From positions 29,044-93,043 of the forward strand of contig JARIGQ010000001.1 in assembly GCA_029288775.1 (NCBI GenBank): 64,000 nt of DNA, read 5' to 3'. A model generated the notes under the pieces. That model was given only the letters and a program-made list of their open reading frames with translations. It was not told the DNA's origin and ran no database searches. Shown piece by piece: positions 38,236 to 44,904 of this stretch. The stretch's first letter is position 1. Every line of letters starts with the position of its first letter. Source of the stretch: Candidatus Nomurabacteria bacterium (GTDB lineage Bacteria; Patescibacteriota; Minisyncoccia; Phycocordibacterales; UBA5272). The position numbers were made by a program, and so were the translations under genes.

Positions 38236-39045
38236 ATGAACGGGCATTTTCACCCCATAACTAAGGCTATCGACAAGGTTGCGCGTATTTTTACCGAGAT
38301 TGGATTTGATGTTGTTGACGGCCCAGAAATTGAAAGCGAGTGGTACTGTTTTGATGCGCTTAATTTTCCTCGCAATCACCCAGCGCGAGACATGCAAGAT
38401 ACTTTTCATATCAAAGCAGAAACATTTGATCGCCCAAAAACAGAAAGCGAACAAAAATCTATGGAACGATTTGGAACTTTTAACTACGTGTTGCGAACAC
38501 ATACTTCTGGTGTCCAAGTTCGTACCATCGAAAAATGGATTAAAGAAAGGAGAGAATTTCCAATTGCAGTGGTGGTGCCTGGCCAAGTGTTTCGTAACGA
38601 AGCAACGGATGCTCGCCATGAAGCGCAGTTTTATCAAGTAGAAGGATTGATGGTTGGAAGGGATATAACACTTGCCCACCTCAAGGGCGTACTTGAACAT
38701 TATTTCTCCAAGTTTTTGGAAAAGGATATCAGAGTACGTTTCCGATCTTCTTTCTTTCCTTTTACAGAACCATCAGTGGAAGTCGATATGGAATGTTTCA
38801 AATGTGAAGGTAAGGGAGTTGTGGAGGGTGTACAGTGTTCGGTTTGTTCAGGTTCGGGGTGGATTGAGATTATGGGTGCGGGAATGGTACATCCTAATGT
38901 CCTTCAAAATGCAGGCCTTAATCCGCGTGAGTATCAAGGCTTTGCGTTTGGGGGAGGGCTTGATCGTCTTGTGATGCTCCAAACTGGTATTGATGATATA
39001 CGCCTGCTTTATAATGGAGACCTTCGGTTGGTACATCAATTCTAA
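38236..39045 (+). CDS. pheS: Phenylalanine--tRNA ligase alpha subunit (short form)
   Basis: Class II aaRS motifs (FPFTEPS, GAGMVHPNVL, GFAFGGGLDR). Confidence 0.9.
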   Translation: MNGHFHPITKAIDKVARIFTEIGFDVVDGPEIESEWYCFDALNFPRNHPARDMQDTFHIKAETFDRPKTESEQKSMERFGTFNYVLRTHTSGVQVRTIEKWIKERREFPIAVVVPGQVFRNEATDARHEAQFYQVEGLMVGRDITLAHLKGVLEHYFSKFLEKDIRVRFRSSFFPFTEPSVEVDMECFKCEGKGVVEGVQCSVCSGSGWIEIMGAGMVHPNVLQNAGLNPREYQGFAFGGGLDRLVMLQTGIDDIRLLYNGDLRLVHQF

Positions 39046-39048
39046 GAT

Positions 39049-39840
39049 ATGAACAAAAGTTATTTAGTTATCCTGAGTCTTTCTATCCTCGCTCTTATAG
39101 CGGTTGGGGTATATGTGTATGAGGGTCGCATGATACAAACTTCTCCTGCTGTCTCGGAAGCGACAGCATCAAGTACAGCTCAAGGAGTCCGTGTACAAGA
39201 GGATACGCCTGCATATACCATCGATATTACCTACCCTGCATTTCCTCAGGAGCTACATGGTGCATCAAAAGCAAATGAAGCCATAAAGAATAATCTCGAT
39301 CTTCGACTTGAACAGTTTAAGAAGGAAGCCAAGGAAAGTTTCGAAGCCCCGACTGATTTACCCGCTAGTGTGAAAAGTACAATGGGTGGCAGTCCTACAA
39401 CCGAATATGAAACCGATAGGTATATTTCTTTGTATTTCGGGGGCAATTGGTATATGCGAGGAGCTGCTCATGGTATGAATACGATTGATACCTACGTCTT
39501 CGATAAAAAGCTGGAGAAAGTTGTTGATATTACTGACATGTTTACACCTGGAAGTGGTTATTTGCAATTTCTTTCCACCTACGCTCGCCAGGATTTAGAA
39601 GCACAATCCAAAAAGGGGGATTTAGGACTTACCTATAACGAAAACATGCTTAAAGAAGGAACTGAAGGAACATTTGATAATTTTCGTCTTGCGCTTCCCA
39701 CTAAGGATGGGCTCGTGATTTATTTTACGGAATATCAAGTCGCTCCGTATGCTGCCGGTCCGCAACAGGTTGTAATACCATATGAAAAGTTAAAGCCGTA
39801 TATTAATCCTGAGGGAGCGCTTGCTGACTATCTTAAATAA
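39049..39840 (+). CDS. Membrane-anchored DUF4163/DUF3298 (RsiV/PdaC-like) domain protein
   Basis: N-terminal TM helix. C-terminal YQVAPYAAG motif. Confidence 0.65.
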   Translation: MNKSYLVILSLSILALIAVGVYVYEGRMIQTSPAVSEATASSTAQGVRVQEDTPAYTIDITYPAFPQELHGASKANEAIKNNLDLRLEQFKKEAKESFEAPTDLPASVKSTMGGSPTTEYETDRYISLYFGGNWYMRGAAHGMNTIDTYVFDKKLEKVVDITDMFTPGSGYLQFLSTYARQDLEAQSKKGDLGLTYNENMLKEGTEGTFDNFRLALPTKDGLVIYFTEYQVAPYAAGPQQVVIPYEKLKPYINPEGALADYLK

Positions 39841-39842
39841 GT

Positions 39843-42185
39843 ATGAAATTTTCATTGAATTGGCTTCAAGAGTACAGTAAAGAACCACTTCCAAATGTGG
39901 ATAGTCTTTCGGAAATGATAACGCTTAATGCCTTCGAGATTGAAGGTATGGAAAAGCTTGCTCAGGATATGGTGCTTGATATTAAAGTATTGCCTAATCG
40001 TGCTCATGACGCTCTCGGACATCGAGGTATGGCGCGTGATATATGTGCTTTGGTAGGGAATACTTTTCACGATACTCAGGAATATTATGAAGGGGAAGGG
40101 GATACTTCTTTAGGTGAACCAAAGGTCATTGCAGCTTCTGAAGAATGTACTCGTTTTATGAGTGTACGTATTGAAGGAATAAAAGTAGAAGAATCACCGG
40201 TATGGCTTAAGGAGAAATTAAACGCCATTGGTCAGAAGAGTATTAATTCAATTGTTGATATCACCAATTTTGTTCAGTTTGCTATTAACAAGCCAATGCA
40301 TGCCTATGACGCAAGTTTGATTGCAGGTAATGCGCTCTATGCAAGGAAAGCAAAAGATGGTGAGAAGCTTATCACGCTTGATGATAAAGAACTTAGTTTG
40401 GATAGCGGTACTTTGGTAATTGCTGATGAAGAAAAGGCATTAGGGCTTGCCGGTATAAAAGGAGGCAAGTTTTCGGGGATTACCTCCGAGACGACGTCTG
40501 TGCTTTTGGAATCAGCGAATTTCAACTCCACCCTTATTAGAAAGACTTCGCAAAAGTATGGTATTCGCACGGATGCTTCCAAGCGTTTTGAAAATGAACT
40601 GGCAGATGAGTTGGTAGAAGACGGGCTCCGTCTAACAATTGCCCTTATCAAGAAACTTAACCCTGAAGCTCGCGTGAGTGCTATTGTAGACCATTGGACG
40701 CATCAAAGTTGGCCCTACGTTGTCTCTGTGTCTGTAGAGGAAATCAACAAGCATCTCGGCACTTCCTACGAAGAAAGTGACATTAAAAAAGTTTTTGAAC
40801 ATTTAGGATTTGGCGTGCGAAGTGCGACAACTCGCGAAATTATTGAAGAACAAGTAAAGAAAACAGAAGGAGCTCTCTACCAAAATCCTTCCAGCATGAG
40901 AACTGATGCGCCACATCTTTTTTCCTGTTCTTCGCTTATAAGTTTTCTTTTTGCTGGAGTATGGCAACCAAGTCTCTCTATTGATAAATATGTGTATGCT
41001 TCTCCTCTTAATAAGATTGATGCAAAGTGGGGGGATTTGGTATTTTCCAACACAGGGGAGGGAAAGATCCGCTATGAATCAGTGCAGTTTTTGCCTGGCA
41101 CTACCGTGGAGCAAGGTGTTGACCATGTGGGATTATATTTAGGGGACAACAAAGTGCTTCACATTTCCCATAACACAAATAAGGTTGTCACCCAAACCTT
41201 TGATGAAGCCGCAGACTTCACTGATAAACTTTTGTTTGCGCGACTTGTAGATGTTGAAGCTCCAAGATTATTTGTGAACGTTCCTCCAGAACGTCTGGAT
41301 ATTCGCATCAAGGAAGATCTTATTGAGGAAGTAGCTCGTATGAAAGGATTGTCTTCTATTCCTTCAGTGCTTCCGAATATTGCTCGCACGGGTATTCCTC
41401 ATAAGCGTTTATATTATGAGACCAAAATAAAAAATATTCTTTCTAAGGGGGGCTTTTCGGAAATCATGACGTACTCCTTTGGGGATGAAGGTGAGGTAGA
41501 AATCATGAAAGGCTCTGCTATGGACAAAGAAAAACTTCGCACCAAGCTTGCGCCTGGCCTCTGGAAGGCATTTCAGATGAATATGCTTAATGCGCCGCTT
41601 CTTCAGATTGATACGGTGAAGATGTACGAATTCGGAAACATCTTCACTCCTACTAATGAGCGTCGTCATTTTGCACTTATCATCGATGACGGTAAAAAGA
41701 AATCATCTTTTTCTGAAGAGGTTGATCTTGTGCTTTCTGAAATTAAACGCGAGCTTGGCGTGTCCCAGCTTGAATGCCAAACAGCAAGCACCAAGCCATA
41801 CTGTGTCGAGCTTGATTTTGATACACTGATCGAATCACTTCCTGAGCCTACGACGTATGAACCGCTTGCACAAGATCTATCACCTATTGCTTACAAACCA
41901 GTCTCTCCTTATCCGTTTATTGTTCGTGATATTGCTGTATGGGTACCTGCTTCTATCACATGGGAAACTATCCGTACTCTCGCTTTACAAATCAGTTCTC
42001 CTCTTATTGCTCGCTTGTATTGTTTTGATACCTTCGAAAAAGAGATAGAGGGGGTTCGGAAAACATCCTTTGCTTTCCGTTTTGTACTCCAATCGCATGA
42101 GCGCACGCTTACGGATGCTGAGGCCAATGAAGTGGCGGATAAGATGTACGCACTCCTTAAGGAAAAAGGGTATGAGATTCGCTAA
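39843..42185 (+). CDS. pheT: Phenylalanine--tRNA ligase beta subunit with an NlpC/P60-like domain inserted in the B5 domain
   Basis: B3/4 domain (LDIKVLPNRAHDALGHRGMARDI). B5 domain (EEINKHLG...EHLGFGV ... VNVPPERLDIRIKEDLIEEVAR) split by about 140 aa carrying SCSS, GDLVF and HVGLYLGDNKVLH (Cys/His/His, 12 residues between the two His). Confidence 0.85.
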   Translation: MKFSLNWLQEYSKEPLPNVDSLSEMITLNAFEIEGMEKLAQDMVLDIKVLPNRAHDALGHRGMARDICALVGNTFHDTQEYYEGEGDTSLGEPKVIAASEECTRFMSVRIEGIKVEESPVWLKEKLNAIGQKSINSIVDITNFVQFAINKPMHAYDASLIAGNALYARKAKDGEKLITLDDKELSLDSGTLVIADEEKALGLAGIKGGKFSGITSETTSVLLESANFNSTLIRKTSQKYGIRTDASKRFENELADELVEDGLRLTIALIKKLNPEARVSAIVDHWTHQSWPYVVSVSVEEINKHLGTSYEESDIKKVFEHLGFGVRSATTREIIEEQVKKTEGALYQNPSSMRTDAPHLFSCSSLISFLFAGVWQPSLSIDKYVYASPLNKIDAKWGDLVFSNTGEGKIRYESVQFLPGTTVEQGVDHVGLYLGDNKVLHISHNTNKVVTQTFDEAADFTDKLLFARLVDVEAPRLFVNVPPERLDIRIKEDLIEEVARMKGLSSIPSVLPNIARTGIPHKRLYYETKIKNILSKGGFSEIMTYSFGDEGEVEIMKGSAMDKEKLRTKLAPGLWKAFQMNMLNAPLLQIDTVKMYEFGNIFTPTNERRHFALIIDDGKKKSSFSEEVDLVLSEIKRELGVSQLECQTASTKPYCVELDFDTLIESLPEPTTYEPLAQDLSPIAYKPVSPYPFIVRDIAVWVPASITWETIRTLALQISSPLIARLYCFDTFEKEIEGVRKTSFAFRFVLQSHERTLTDAEANEVADKMYALLKEKGYEIR

Positions 42186-42186
42186 G

Positions 42187-42678
42187 ATGAAACTCGTCGT
42201 TCCCTATTATTCACAATTCGTAGATATTCAGGATCCTTTTTGGATGTTACGTGCTTGCGGAGCGGTATGTCTTAAGATGGTTGCGGAATTTCAGGGAAAA
42301 GAAGTTCCCGATTTAATAATTCTATGCAATGAGGCAAAAGAGCGCGGAGGATACGATATGGTAAATGGATGGGTACATGATTATTTGGTATCTAAAGCTG
42401 AAGAGTTGGGATTGAAAGCATATCGCAAGGAAGGTCTCGATACTCTTGATGAAGTTAAAGCCTTTTTAGAAAAAGGACCGGTAATTGTTTCTGTGGAGAA
42501 ACGTGTGCTTGAGCAAAAGCGCTTTCACATGATTGTGATAACGGGTATTGAAGACGATATGGTTATCTACCACGAACCGGAATCAACTGATAAAGGGAGA
42601 GGGATGAACCGCGTGTGCACTGTGCAAGCATTTATGGACTATTGGCGCGGCAAAGCTATTTTTATCGACTCACCTTAG
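42187..42678 (+). CDS. Papain-like cysteine peptidase, C39-like (Peptidase_C39_2/BtrH-like)
   Basis: VVPYYSQ...ACGAVCLKMV Cys motif and downstream His (FHMIVITG). Its ATG lies 1 nt after the pheT stop (TAAGATG). Confidence 0.6.
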   Translation: MKLVVPYYSQFVDIQDPFWMLRACGAVCLKMVAEFQGKEVPDLIILCNEAKERGGYDMVNGWVHDYLVSKAEELGLKAYRKEGLDTLDEVKAFLEKGPVIVSVEKRVLEQKRFHMIVITGIEDDMVIYHEPESTDKGRGMNRVCTVQAFMDYWRGKAIFIDSP

Positions 42679-43424
42679 AATTGTTCTAGATGCGCTTTCC
42701 AGAGATCATGACGATCATCTATGTGTCTCTCATTGTCACTGCGGCATAGAGATTTCAGTAAAGGTGTATCTTTTATCCATTCCTTGCCATTCCAAAATTC
42801 CAGTGGTTCGACATTTGTTTTATAGAGGGCTTTTTCCGCATAGCAGGTACCGAAATAAAAATAGTGTTTGCCATTTTTTGAAAGTTCTCGTATATGATCC
42901 AGTGCAAGCCACATACCCATGGAAGATTTCGCGTATTCGTGAGCGTAAAAGGAAAACCAGTAATGACTCATGACTTCATCCTCTACCAGTAAAAGGTAAG
43001 CGACAGGTATTCCATCCTTAGCGTATTCGACAATTGAATTGATAAGGTTCATCGAGAGAATAAGTTCGAGACGTTCGCGTGGCATGACGCTTCCGTGAGC
43101 AAGGTTGAAGTATGAAAGGCAGAGGTTGAAGAATGTCTCATCGTGTAGAATATCTTCTACAGTACGAAGCTTTTTTTCAAACATGCCATCAAACATGCGT
43201 AAGACCCGACGGTTTTCACTTGTAGGCTCCCATTTCCTAATATCTGCTCGGGTTCCTCGCGCCATATAAAAAATATCTCGTATTCCTTTGGATCCAGAGT
43301 AGGGAAGAAAACCTCGCTCATAGATTTCATGAAGTTTGTCTCCGTGTTCGCGCTTAAGGTACAACGTATAGGCGAAGGAATACGTTTCGTATGAGTGGCC
43401 AAATTCAGAAGCAAATAACTGCAT
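42675..43424 (-). CDS. Arginyl/leucyl-tRNA--protein transferase-like (ATE/Bpt family) protein
   Basis: C-terminal HYFYFGTCYAEKALYK resembles the ATE_C YK motif. Family-level call only. Confidence 0.45.
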   Translation of the reverse strand: MQLFASEFGHSYETYSFAYTLYLKREHGDKLHEIYERGFLPYSGSKGIRDIFYMARGTRADIRKWEPTSENRRVLRMFDGMFEKKLRTVEDILHDETFFNLCLSYFNLAHGSVMPRERLELILSMNLINSIVEYAKDGIPVAYLLLVEDEVMSHYWFSFYAHEYAKSSMGMWLALDHIRELSKNGKHYFYFGTCYAEKALYKTNVEPLEFWNGKEWIKDTPLLKSLCRSDNERHIDDRHDLWKAHLEQF

Positions 43425-43427
43425 AGA

Positions 43428-44840
43428 TTAAGCGGGAAATTTTTCTTCCAGTGCTGAAATGGTTTCTGGAATGAATCCTCCCATACCTCCTGAACTTAAA
43501 ATAAGAATAACGTCATTATCTTGTGTGTAATTAACAAGATCTATTAATCCAGTAGCAGCATGTTCAAACGGGGTTACTTCGATACCAGAGGCACGCACGC
43601 GCTCTACAATTTCTTCAAGATTTAACTGCTCATGAGTTCCGCTTCCGTGCTCAGGGGGTTTATACATAAACACATGCTCTGCTCCCTTAAATACGGTATC
43701 GTACCAATGAAGTGCTGCACGGTTGCGCCAAGAAAATGTATGAGGTTCAAACACAACAACAAGCCGTCTACTTGGAAAATGAAGTTCCATTGCTTCGATT
43801 GCAGAACGTGCCTTATCAACGGATGATCCAAATCCTTCATAGACGGGAATGGAAGTTTTTTCACTCTTCTTATCCAGTCGACGCACAATTCCTTTGAAGG
43901 TCTGTATACCTTTTGCAAGCTCTTCCGGAGTGAGTTTTTGTGTTTCTAATAGAAGAGCCGCAACTCCAATAATATTTTGTATATTGTGCTTACCTAGAAG
44001 AGTGGTAGAAAGGCGGACAATAACTTCATCATTTTTTACTAAATCAAAGGTTGATTCTCGGCCAAAAGTAATGTTTGCTGCGTGATAGGTTCCTTGTTCC
44101 AGTCCGTACGAAATACTATCGTGAGTTATTTCTCCTAGTTTAGAGTGTACAGTCATATCATCCGTACAGAGGATAAGTTTTCCCTCTTGGGGGAGACCTT
44201 GAATAAGCTTCATGAAAGGGAAAAGATAGTCCTCGTGGGTTGGAAAGACATTTACATGATCATGAGCAAGCGCAGTGACAAGGAGATGTCTTGGATGGAG
44301 GAACATAAACTTAGAAGTAGTGTCCCAATTAGAAGAAGGATATTCGTCGCCTTCCATGATGAAATCATTTCCATTGCCTAGACGCGCATTGGTGGTAGGT
44401 GTAAGGGGAATTGCACCAATGAAATAACTTGGATCTTTCCCGGCTTGCTCGAGACACCAGGAAAGAAGTGATGTGCAGGTAGATTTGCCAAATGATCCAA
44501 CTACCACAGTATTTTCTTTGTGTTCCGAAAGGTGTTCAAGTACTTGTGGAAAAGAAAGGACTGGTTTTCCTGATTCTAAAGCAGCTTTTACTTCTTCATT
44601 TTCTTCAGGAATAAGTTTTGCATGTTTGCCGATGACGATATAGTCCACATCATCTGGAATATTATTTGGAGAAAACGGAGTAGTGCACGGGATTTTATGT
44701 TCCACTAAATAATCAGAAATAGGAGGGTAGAAGCCTTCATCGCTTCCTGTTACGGTTTCTCCTTTGTCGACAAGTAACTTGGCAACCGCGCTCATGCCGG
44801 CGCCGGAGACGCCGATAAAGTGATATTTCATACTTTTCAT
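43428..44840 (-). CDS. Mur ligase family protein (MurC/Mpl-type UDP-N-acetylmuramate ligase)
   Basis: N-terminal FIGVSGAGMS and a central GSFGKSTCTS P-loop. The start codon is ambiguous (44831, 44840 or 44843). Confidence 0.8.
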   Translation of the reverse strand: MKSMKYHFIGVSGAGMSAVAKLLVDKGETVTGSDEGFYPPISDYLVEHKIPCTTPFSPNNIPDDVDYIVIGKHAKLIPEENEEVKAALESGKPVLSFPQVLEHLSEHKENTVVVGSFGKSTCTSLLSWCLEQAGKDPSYFIGAIPLTPTTNARLGNGNDFIMEGDEYPSSNWDTTSKFMFLHPRHLLVTALAHDHVNVFPTHEDYLFPFMKLIQGLPQEGKLILCTDDMTVHSKLGEITHDSISYGLEQGTYHAANITFGRESTFDLVKNDEVIVRLSTTLLGKHNIQNIIGVAALLLETQKLTPEELAKGIQTFKGIVRRLDKKSEKTSIPVYEGFGSSVDKARSAIEAMELHFPSRRLVVVFEPHTFSWRNRAALHWYDTVFKGAEHVFMYKPPEHGSGTHEQLNLEEIVERVRASGIEVTPFEHAATGLIDLVNYTQDNDVILILSSGGMGGFIPETISALEEKFPA

Positions 44841-44904
44841 CATAGCAAAAATGGACAAGAAAAAAAGCAGCGCTTGCGCGCTGCCCAAAGCACCTTTCCC
44901 GCCC

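Follow-up and report, generated by a model that had tools for sequence, protein, structure and literature searches.

The phenylalanyl-tRNA synthetase (PheRS) beta subunit of a Candidatus Nomurabacteria bacterium contains, almost beyond doubt, a genuine catalytic-type NlpC/P60 domain nested inside its B5 domain. The gene, pheT (39843..42185, + strand; 780 amino acids [aa] by open reading frame, Pfam and NCBIfam), lies in a 64,000-nucleotide stretch of contig JARIGQ010000001.1, which we call the window and whose numbering we use throughout. Judging from sequence comparisons, the insert and the B5 halves around it are probably an autonomous accessory hydrolase that rides on PheRS and has a C39-like cysteine peptidase, encoded next door, as its partner. 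This module evolves independently of the machinery for aminoacylation and editing, but in step with the second cysteine peptidase.

An NlpC/P60 domain splits B5 of PheT

The window gene is a bacterial PheRS beta gene by its equivalog score, its B3/4-B5-CLM-FDX-ACB architecture and the pheS gene nearby. The whole protein passes the NCBIfam model TIGR00472 (pheT_bact) marginally, with 405.1 bits against a cut-off of 402.65. Pfam places B3_4 at aa 102-272 (187 bits), CLM at aa 506-647 and FDX-ACB at aa 688-780, and it finds B5 as two separate stretches on either side of NLPC_P60. The domain order is a B1 fragment, the B3/4 editing domain (40146..40658, + strand), the N-terminal half of B5, NlpC/P60, the C-terminal half of B5, CLM (B6/7) and FDX-ACB (B8). 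The N-terminal half of B5 (40713..40817, + strand; aa ~291-325) is a strand-helix-helix-strand unit that runs up to the motif EHLGFGV (aa 319-325). The C-terminal half (41247..41348, + strand; aa 469-502, with the Pfam B5 stretch at 470-502) contains RLFVNVPPERLDIRIKEDLIEEVAR and the motif DLIEEVAR (aa 492-499).

In a phmmer alignment with the Thermus thermophilus beta chain, query residues 325 and 469 both adjoin Thermus residue 435, from which the C-terminal half aligns. Hence, about 143 aa (326-468; 40818..41246, + strand) are extra, and they lie in the hairpin that connects the final two B5 strands. A sequence-only reading of the window had already proposed an in-frame NlpC/P60-like domain inside B5, with about 160 aa between the two B5 motifs. 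The distance is 166 aa, compared with about 24 in Thermus; the codons for Cys362, His428 and His440 are in frame and the motifs quoted in that reading are present. Its coordinates, 40926-41171, cover the core from the Cys to the second His but stop short of both ends of the insert.

The insert is a papain-fold domain of the P60 type (MEROPS C40). In a search of the whole protein, Pfam NLPC_P60 (PF00877) scores 27.7 bits over aa 358-455; for the insert by itself the score is 33.1 bits (E 5.7e-8). Both exceed the gathering cut-off of 23, and free-standing relatives score 49-57 bits. Weaker matches are to LRAT, Amidase_5, RipB, p60 and YaeF, which belong to the same superfamily. The catalytic residues stand in the non-permuted order Cys, His, third polar residue, all on the + strand: the predicted nucleophile Cys362 (TGT, 40926..40928; motif F-[SD]-C-S-S-L, within LFSCSSLISFLF at aa 359-370), the predicted general base His428 (CAT, 41124..41126; motif G-[VI]-D-H-V-G) and His440 (CAC, 41160..41162). 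GDLVF occupies aa 397-401, and the two His residues bound the segment HVGLYLGDNKVLH (aa 428-440). A family-specific loop of about 20 aa, SNTGEGKIRYESVQFLPGTTVEQGVD, directly precedes the catalytic His.

An AlphaFold model of aa 285-505, built from an alignment of 61 homologues, has a mean predicted local distance difference test score (pLDDT) of 94.8 and a predicted template modelling score (pTM) of 0.90. B5 and the peptidase insert are predicted to fold as one compact module with a papain-like alpha+beta fold, in line with what the sequence-only reading had supposed. Both in sequence and in structure, the neighbours of the insert are peptidoglycan DL-endopeptidases. By hidden Markov model (HMM) match, by the order and conservation of its triad and by its fold, the insert is an NlpC/P60 domain; it departs from the family in its location, since an extracytoplasmic site is usual for NlpC/P60 proteins, though not defining. 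We found no signal peptide in PheT, in the free-standing modules or in the C39-like protein, and the free-standing forms open with the first B5 strand.

The insert is an old feature of one lineage

We examined the 120 best matches of a whole-PheT search. The insert is present in 109 of them (731-813 aa), and its key residues are nearly invariant there: the Cys, the Gly-Asp of GDLVF and the second His are each found in 109/109 and the first His in 108/109. Across 73 modules sampled at the species level, embedded and free-standing together, the Cys and the first His are kept in 73/73 and the second His in 71/73, with one Gln and one Tyr in its place. Conservation extends to the flanking motif residues Asp355, Ala356, Pro357, Phe360, Gly397, Asp398 and Asp427. 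Among insert-bearing PheTs, mean pairwise identity is 0.61 in the NlpC core, 0.60 in CLM, 0.64 in FDX-ACB, 0.56 in B1 and 0.75 in B3/4. Since the core is about as conserved as the host domains, the insert is old and under purifying selection. GC content runs continuously across the insert and its flanks.

In a scan of one genome per GTDB species, the module occurred in 72 species genomes, embedded in a PheT downstream of pheS in 54 and free-standing in 18. Carriers labelled more closely than 'bacterium' or 'Patescibacteria group' are Nomura-, Zambryski-, Campbell-, Yonath-, Kaiser-, Wolfe-, Vogel- and Lloydbacteria, besides other Paceibacterota/Parcubacteria; some 30 carrier third-party annotation assemblies bear the label 'uncultured Candidatus Saccharibacteria'. 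A profile search of 1.84 billion cluster representatives returned 165 clusters (50% identity) at E <= 1e-30, most of them 730-840 aa long with the module at about residues 290-520. We conclude that the insert is an old feature of the Paceibacteria, within the candidate phyla radiation (CPR), and is confined to this one CPR lineage. Perhaps the segment is simply a normal extension of B5, shared with other bacteria? Its restriction to a single lineage speaks against this, and the B5 halves are directly joined in the solved PheRS structures as well as in the nearest relatives that lack the insert.

Two sets of unusual proteins also appeared in the profile search. Six of 478-543 aa (P0299, P0317, P0342, P0345, P0367 and P0371) have the module followed by CLM and FDX-ACB, without B1 or B3/4; they are either gene calls cut at the N terminus by contig ends or PheTs minus the editing half. 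P0275 (1183 aa) has nine tandem NlpC/P60 repeats and is unrelated to PheT, its high profile rank being an artefact of summed repeats.

PheT proteins that lack the insert

The other 11 of the 120 best matches are 636-638 aa long and lack exactly the insert segment, running from LGF(GV/SY) via about nine residues to V.VP.ERLDIRIKEDLIEEVAR. In trees built from the flanking domains only, these proteins fall into several groups among the insert-bearing ones. The groups are 69-78% similar to insert-bearing proteins, compared with 66-76% to other insert-less groups. Fitch parsimony on the insert gave 3-5 state changes in 30/30 bootstrap neighbour-joining (NJ) trees. These comparisons suggest that the insert was lost cleanly at least three times from otherwise intact PheTs.

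What does PheT lose with the insert? The editing-site residues Thr141, Asn142, Met152, His153 and Glu223, which align with T249, N250, M260, H261 and E334 of the T. thermophilus beta chain, are kept in 106-109 of the 109 insert-bearing PheTs and at about 100% in the 11 insert-less proteins. The B5 acidic residues Asp486, Asp492, Glu495 and Glu496, presumably the Mg2+ site shared with the alpha subunit that UniProt annotates, are likewise kept in 106-109/109 and are equally conserved when the insert is absent. Because both sets of residues are equal with and without it, the insert is dispensable for a normal-looking PheT. The same conservation led us to reject the idea that the insert replaces a decayed B3/4 editing site.

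Free-standing modules and a single-chain PheRS

Searching with just the insert recovered about 27 proteins, 186-237 aa long, for which 'NlpC/P60 family protein' is the fullest annotation. Their termini align to the two halves of B5, with W.Y.(I/V)G(F/L)S..E....GF.Y at the N terminus and ERFVV.VP..R.DLR..E.LI.EI at the C terminus, and Pfam gives weak B5 matches at their ends. The triad is intact in the free-standing modules of the species scan (Cys, His and His each 18/18), while Asp492, Glu495 and Glu496 of the B5 acidic cluster have degenerated: Asp492 has become Asn, Ser or Lys, and Glu495 mostly Lys.

Fifteen of these 18 modules adjoin a gene for a 375-414-aa protein made of tRNA-synt_2d and FDX-ACB, eight of them head-to-head and seven directly downstream on the same strand; at one locus (L070), the two gene calls overlap by 4 bp. 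The best PDB match of the single-chain protein is human mitochondrial PheRS, at E 2e-56 compared with about 1e-36 for bacterial alpha chains. Against NCBIfam it scores 240-249 on pheS_mito (cut-off 258) and 248-261 on 'PheS-related mystery ligase SrmL' (cut-off 300). We infer that this protein is the PheRS of these cells. Representative genes, both tRNA-synt_2d + FDX-ACB, lie at L003 6821-7963 (- strand) and L070 4820-5968 (+ strand). Single-chain PheRS-like proteins are also found in L081-L160 (Paceibacteria).

In L003 the genes are ordered RF-...-rpsB-tsf-...-GT2-single-chain PheRS-module-gyrB-...-thrS. This is the same frame as in the window, RF-rpsB-tsf-...-GT2-pheS-(DUF3298)-pheT-C39-...-gyrB-...-thrS, so that the free-standing module sits in the pheT slot. 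We considered whether the ~200-aa proteins might be donors of the insert that are unrelated to PheT, and rejected this because both B5 halves are present and the pheT slot of the conserved frame is the one they occupy. In an NJ tree without support values, the free-standing modules fall into two clades that correspond to the two gene arrangements, and both clades are nested among embedded modules. A metagenome scan for the single-chain PheRS yielded 493 relatives, and the module was next door in 7 of the 48 loci that had 800 bp or more to either side. With 41 of these 48 informative loci devoid of the module, an obligate partnership between the two is not supported. Human mitochondrial PheRS is itself a chimera that joins domain B8 to the alpha catalytic module, without editing (PMC3275996). 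We propose that a single-chain PheRS made PheT redundant, that everything but B5-NlpC/P60 was then deleted and that the remnant was later often lost or moved.

A C39-like peptidase gene accompanies the insert

The ATG start codon of the gene downstream of pheT (42187..42678, + strand) lies one base past the pheT stop codon. The gene encodes a 163-aa cytoplasmic C39-like papain-fold cysteine peptidase (Pfam Peptidase_C39_2, 35.2 bits). Its AlphaFold model (pLDDT 88.8) matched the peptidase domains of PCAT1 and ComA, AvrRpt2 and PeiR, a pseudomurein endoisopeptidase, in Foldseek, and the closest structural relatives are the double-glycine leader peptidases PCAT1 and ComA. Among the 120 family matches listed, which are 58-86% identical to the query, Cys24 and His114 are invariant.

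A C39-like homologue is found just downstream of pheT in 37/54 insert-bearing loci and in 0/5 insert-less pheT contexts; phmmer at E <= 10 on the DNA of four of the latter detected none. Fisher's test gives p = 0.005 for this co-occurrence, with observations that are not phylogenetically independent. The insert-less locus L079 preserves the downstream order of the window, pheT and then opposite-strand ATE-like and Mur-ligase genes, minus the C39-like gene. In another insert-less locus (L077), a 173-aa gene after pheT was considered as a C39-like homologue and found to be unrelated. A C39-like homologue also follows the free-standing module in L068, L069, L072, L114 and L144, in the order single-chain PheRS-module-C39, on the same strand and with adjacent or overlapping genes. 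Module and C39-like peptidase are fused into one protein in L047 (400 aa), P0291 and P0292. Co-inheritance, co-loss and fusion together argue that the insert and the C39-like peptidase work together.

A proposed function for the module

What might such a pair of enzymes do? The best overall explanation that we can offer, and we offer it tentatively, is that the module is an autonomous thiol amidase which, with its C39-like partner, handles cell-wall peptides. Cys362, activated by His428 with His440 in the orienting role, would attack an amide bond of a cytoplasmic peptide via a thioester intermediate, in tandem with the C39-like enzyme. The likeliest substrates would be gamma-D-glutamyl-type cell-wall peptides, either precursors or recycled muropeptides, in turnover or recycling. 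The module would stay out of aminoacylation and of B3/4 editing, neither of which seems to have changed.

That the substrate is a cell-wall-type peptide is a guess of less than even likelihood, and it draws on homology to DL-endopeptidases, which are specific for gamma-D-Glu-diamino-acid bonds, on the PeiR-like relatives of the partner and on gene context. In L047 (2994-7891) and L048 (2283-9203), free-standing modules lie away from any PheRS gene and inside a cell-wall gene cluster. Peptidase_S11 (DD-carboxypeptidase), MraY-type Glycos_transf_4 and CAP genes flank them on one side, VanW/PG_binding_4 and DUF218 genes on the opposite side. Genes for Mur ligases are found downstream of pheT in 9/54 insert-bearing GTDB loci (within 6 kb) and in 5/5 insert-less contexts.

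Several points weigh against this account. The substrate is read solely from homology and neighbourhood; the cell-wall context comes from two related loci only, L047 and L048; and the Mur-gene neighbourhood is weak evidence, because it is ancestral and present without the insert too. Lacking signal peptides, the enzymes must work in the cytoplasm, an atypical place for P60-type hydrolases. Seventeen of the 54 insert-bearing loci have no C39-like gene within 6 kb. The 15/18 free-standing modules that still adjoin a PheRS gene, the seven directly downstream on the same strand included, could reflect a functional tie instead of residual synteny. That canonical pheT is absent where the single-chain PheRS is present is an assumption and not a whole-genome result, and all of the trees are NJ only. 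Finally, nothing in the account explains why an accessory amidase would be built into PheRS.

The alternatives differ in how much of this evidence they can accommodate. Evidence for autonomy and for the C39-like partnership would fit equally if the same cysteine hydrolase and its partner had a substrate outside the cell wall, such as imported oligopeptides that feed an auxotroph (with Phe among the amino acids supplied) or a specific protein or leader peptide. Both proteins are cytoplasmic, the partner is nearest to the leader peptidases PCAT1 and ComA, and attachment to PheRS could serve local amino-acid supply. We nevertheless regard such a substrate, the main rival, as rather unlikely, because the neighbours of the insert in sequence and structure are all peptidoglycan DL-endopeptidases, because relocated modules lie among cell-wall genes and because no conserved precursor-peptide or transporter gene stands beside the pair in the loci examined. 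Might the domain not be catalytic at all, but serve in binding or regulation, for instance by sensing muropeptides to tune PheRS or by offering the C39-like protein a docking surface? NlpC/P60 domains without catalytic activity are known (RipD is among the matches), and 2/73 modules have Gln or Tyr as the third triad residue. However, Cys362 and His428 are invariant in 73/73 modules and in 108-109/109 PheTs, along with the flanking motif residues, and free-standing copies hold on to the triad as the B5 acidic cluster decays. Pseudo-enzymes normally lose their nucleophile. The invariant nucleophile makes a purely structural role unlikely, and we give the non-catalytic alternative little credence. 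An artefact or selfish element, be it an assembly chimera, an intein or a recent functionless mobile insertion, has nothing but the unusual architecture to recommend it and can practically be dismissed: an independent 124,731-bp contig encodes an identical protein, the insert occupies one and the same site in more than 100 distinct homologues from many samples, GC content shows no break towards the flanks and the insert has diverged as much as the host domains. The intein, which the sequence-only reading had also discarded, fails on further grounds, for there is no Hint, LAGLIDADG or endonuclease match, the junctions (LGFGV/RSATT and DVEAP/RLFV) have no splice-junction residues and the fold is papain-like. 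No family in PADLOC-DB, which covers known and candidate anti-phage defence systems, matched PheT, the module in free-standing form or fused to C39, the C39-like protein or the ATE-like protein at E <= 0.001.

Could the NlpC/P60 domain act on a product of PheRS itself? It might be a thiol hydrolase of acylated or misacylated tRNAPhe or of the aminoacyl-adenylate, providing extra or trans-editing, or it might transfer Phe from a Cys362 thioester to an amine acceptor. B5 contacts the editing domain and the alpha subunit (PMC12449066), and free-standing modules are often found beside a mitochondrial-type single-chain PheRS, whose human mitochondrial counterpart is without editing (PMC3275996). 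It is conceivable, though improbable, that the Cys-His-His triad works on the ester or anhydride products of PheRS, whether in thiol proofreading or in a Phe-thioester relay from Phe-tRNAPhe to a non-ribosomal acceptor, for example a cell-wall peptide. By the same improbable route, the free-standing B5-NlpC/P60 protein would be a trans-acting form beside an editing-less single-chain PheRS. If true, the editing or transfer domains associated with synthetases would gain a new chemical class, and an enzyme would directly bridge translation and the cell wall. Most of our findings point the other way, and we doubt that the domain acts on PheRS products. The B3/4 editing residues are fully kept with and without the insert, leaving no editing gap, and the insert was lost at least three times with nothing else changed. 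Single-chain PheRS loci without the module nearby predominate (41/48), and free-standing modules have lost acidic residues of B5 which PheT keeps invariant. With mean isoelectric points of 5.5 and 6.7, the module is acidic to neutral, unlike an RNA binder; its nearest relatives are DL-endopeptidases and not LRAT-type transferases; and the C39-like partner and the fusions fit poorly. Known aminoacyl-tRNA editing folds (B3/4-CtdA, AlaX, YbaK/ProX and DTD) showed no homology to the insert, which matched papain-like families only. This makes a known editing domain less likely, while the insert might yet deacylate.

The pheS-pheT locus

The window PheT is reduced at its N terminus (39843-40145, + strand; aa 1-101). 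The B2 OB-fold (tRNA_bind) domain is absent, B1 is cut down and the PDB alignment with the Thermus beta chain begins at Thermus residue 151. Hence, this beta subunit is already reduced relative to those of model bacteria.

A short form of the PheRS alpha gene, pheS (38236..39045, + strand; 269 aa), lies 0.8 kb upstream on the same strand; its product scores 302.7 bits on Pfam tRNA-synt_2d and 293.4 bits on NCBIfam TIGR00468 (pheS; cut-off 237). The protein is without the N-terminal coiled coil. Its catalytic core has a zinc-knuckle-like CxxC...CxxC insertion, CFKCEGKGVVEGVQCSVCSGSG (aa ~183-210), with weak matches to DnaJ_CXXCXGXG and anti-TRAP, and the PheS of L077 has a similar weak Anti-TRAP match. 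Between pheS and pheT lies a gene for a DUF3298/PdaC-domain protein (39049-39840, + strand), RsiV-like and with an N-terminal hydrophobic segment. The pheS-DUF3298-pheT arrangement is also seen in L005, L006, L010, L012 and L021 and in the insert-less L080.

Downstream of the C39-like gene, on the - strand, are genes for an ATE_C/Acetyltransf_6 protein with the fold of arginyl- or Fem-type aminoacyl-tRNA transferases (42675-43424) and for a MurC/Mpl-like paralogue of Mur ligases, with scores under both equivalog cut-offs (43428-44888). They may be an aminoacyl-tRNA-dependent peptide-building pair. The pair recurs in L006, L007, L016, L062 and L079, independent of the insert. In L062, from a metagenome-assembled genome labelled as alphaproteobacterial, the ATE-like and MurC-like pair lies 3.5 kb from a free-standing module. 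Module and pair match the CPR group, and L062 is probably a mis-binned CPR contig.

Significance and comparison with known systems

In eukaryotes, aminoacyl-tRNA synthetases with appended catalytic domains are well known. To our knowledge, and in full-text searches, no complete second hydrolase has been described inside a core domain of a bacterial synthetase. The sequence-only reading had called the arrangement undescribed, and full-text literature searches indeed returned no description of NlpC/P60 inside PheRS; a Patescibacteria preprint that names PheRS does so for pheS as a counter-selection marker only. Database pipelines nonetheless already name some of these PheTs 'C40 family peptidase' or else 'beta subunit-related protein', and they enter the remnants as 'NlpC/P60 family protein'. 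Such misleading names can make PheRS look absent, and cell-wall hydrolases present, in metabolic reconstructions of Patescibacteria.

Insert-bearing PheT, clean-loss PheT, the free-standing remnant that neighbours a single-chain PheRS of mitochondrial type and the fusion with a second cysteine peptidase make up a natural series of four states, in which a synthetase subunit is dismantled domain by domain in streamlined CPR genomes. The series shows that B5 can act as an insertion-tolerant scaffold. The case also points to a cytoplasmic peptidase system of two enzymes, in organisms about whose cell-wall and amino-acid economy little is understood.

Compared with the bacterial PheTs of T. thermophilus (1B70/2IY5), Staphylococcus haemolyticus (2RHS) and E. 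coli (3PCO), the window protein shares the order B3/4, B5, CLM, FDX-ACB, the editing and acidic residues and an operon with pheS. It differs in having B5 split by 143 aa, in missing the B2 OB-fold and in its reduced B1. The 375-414-aa single-chain proteins have the same tRNA-synt_2d + FDX-ACB architecture as human mitochondrial PheRS (3CMQ and 5MGH), but they are bacterial, from the CPR, and fall just under the pheS_mito and SrmL cut-offs. CtdA, a canavanyl-tRNA deacylase, is a free-standing descendant of the B3/B4 editing domain of PheT (PMC12449066). Like the ~200-aa B5N-NlpC/P60-B5C proteins, CtdA is a piece of PheT that has become an independent small protein. However, CtdA derives from B3/B4 and is a proven aminoacyl-tRNA deacylase, whereas the free-standing modules derive from B5 and its insert and are known here from sequence alone.

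The closest known relatives of the insert itself are the P60-type NlpC/P60 proteins, among them Bacillus subtilis CwlO and LytE, Clostridioides difficile Acd24020, E. coli MepS/Spr, Mycobacterium tuberculosis RipB and the cyanobacterial AvPCP and NpPCP, all peptidoglycan DL-endopeptidases. These are secreted proteins or lipoproteins with SH3b, LysM or coiled-coil regions, whereas the insert is nested in a cytoplasmic synthetase subunit that has no signal peptide. To their common core, the insert adds the conserved pre-His loop of about 20 aa and a Y-K-N-P-S-S-M-R-x-D-A-P motif before the Cys. Gsp, CtdA and mitochondrial PheRS are all without a B5-nested hydrolase, B5-NlpC/P60 remnants or a C39-like partnership. 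Even so, Gsp of E. coli (glutathionylspermidine synthetase/amidase) and trypanothione synthetase join a ligase to a papain-like Cys-His amidase (CHAP) of the same superfamily, which sets a precedent for an ATP-dependent ligase and a thiol amidase combined in one cytoplasmic protein.

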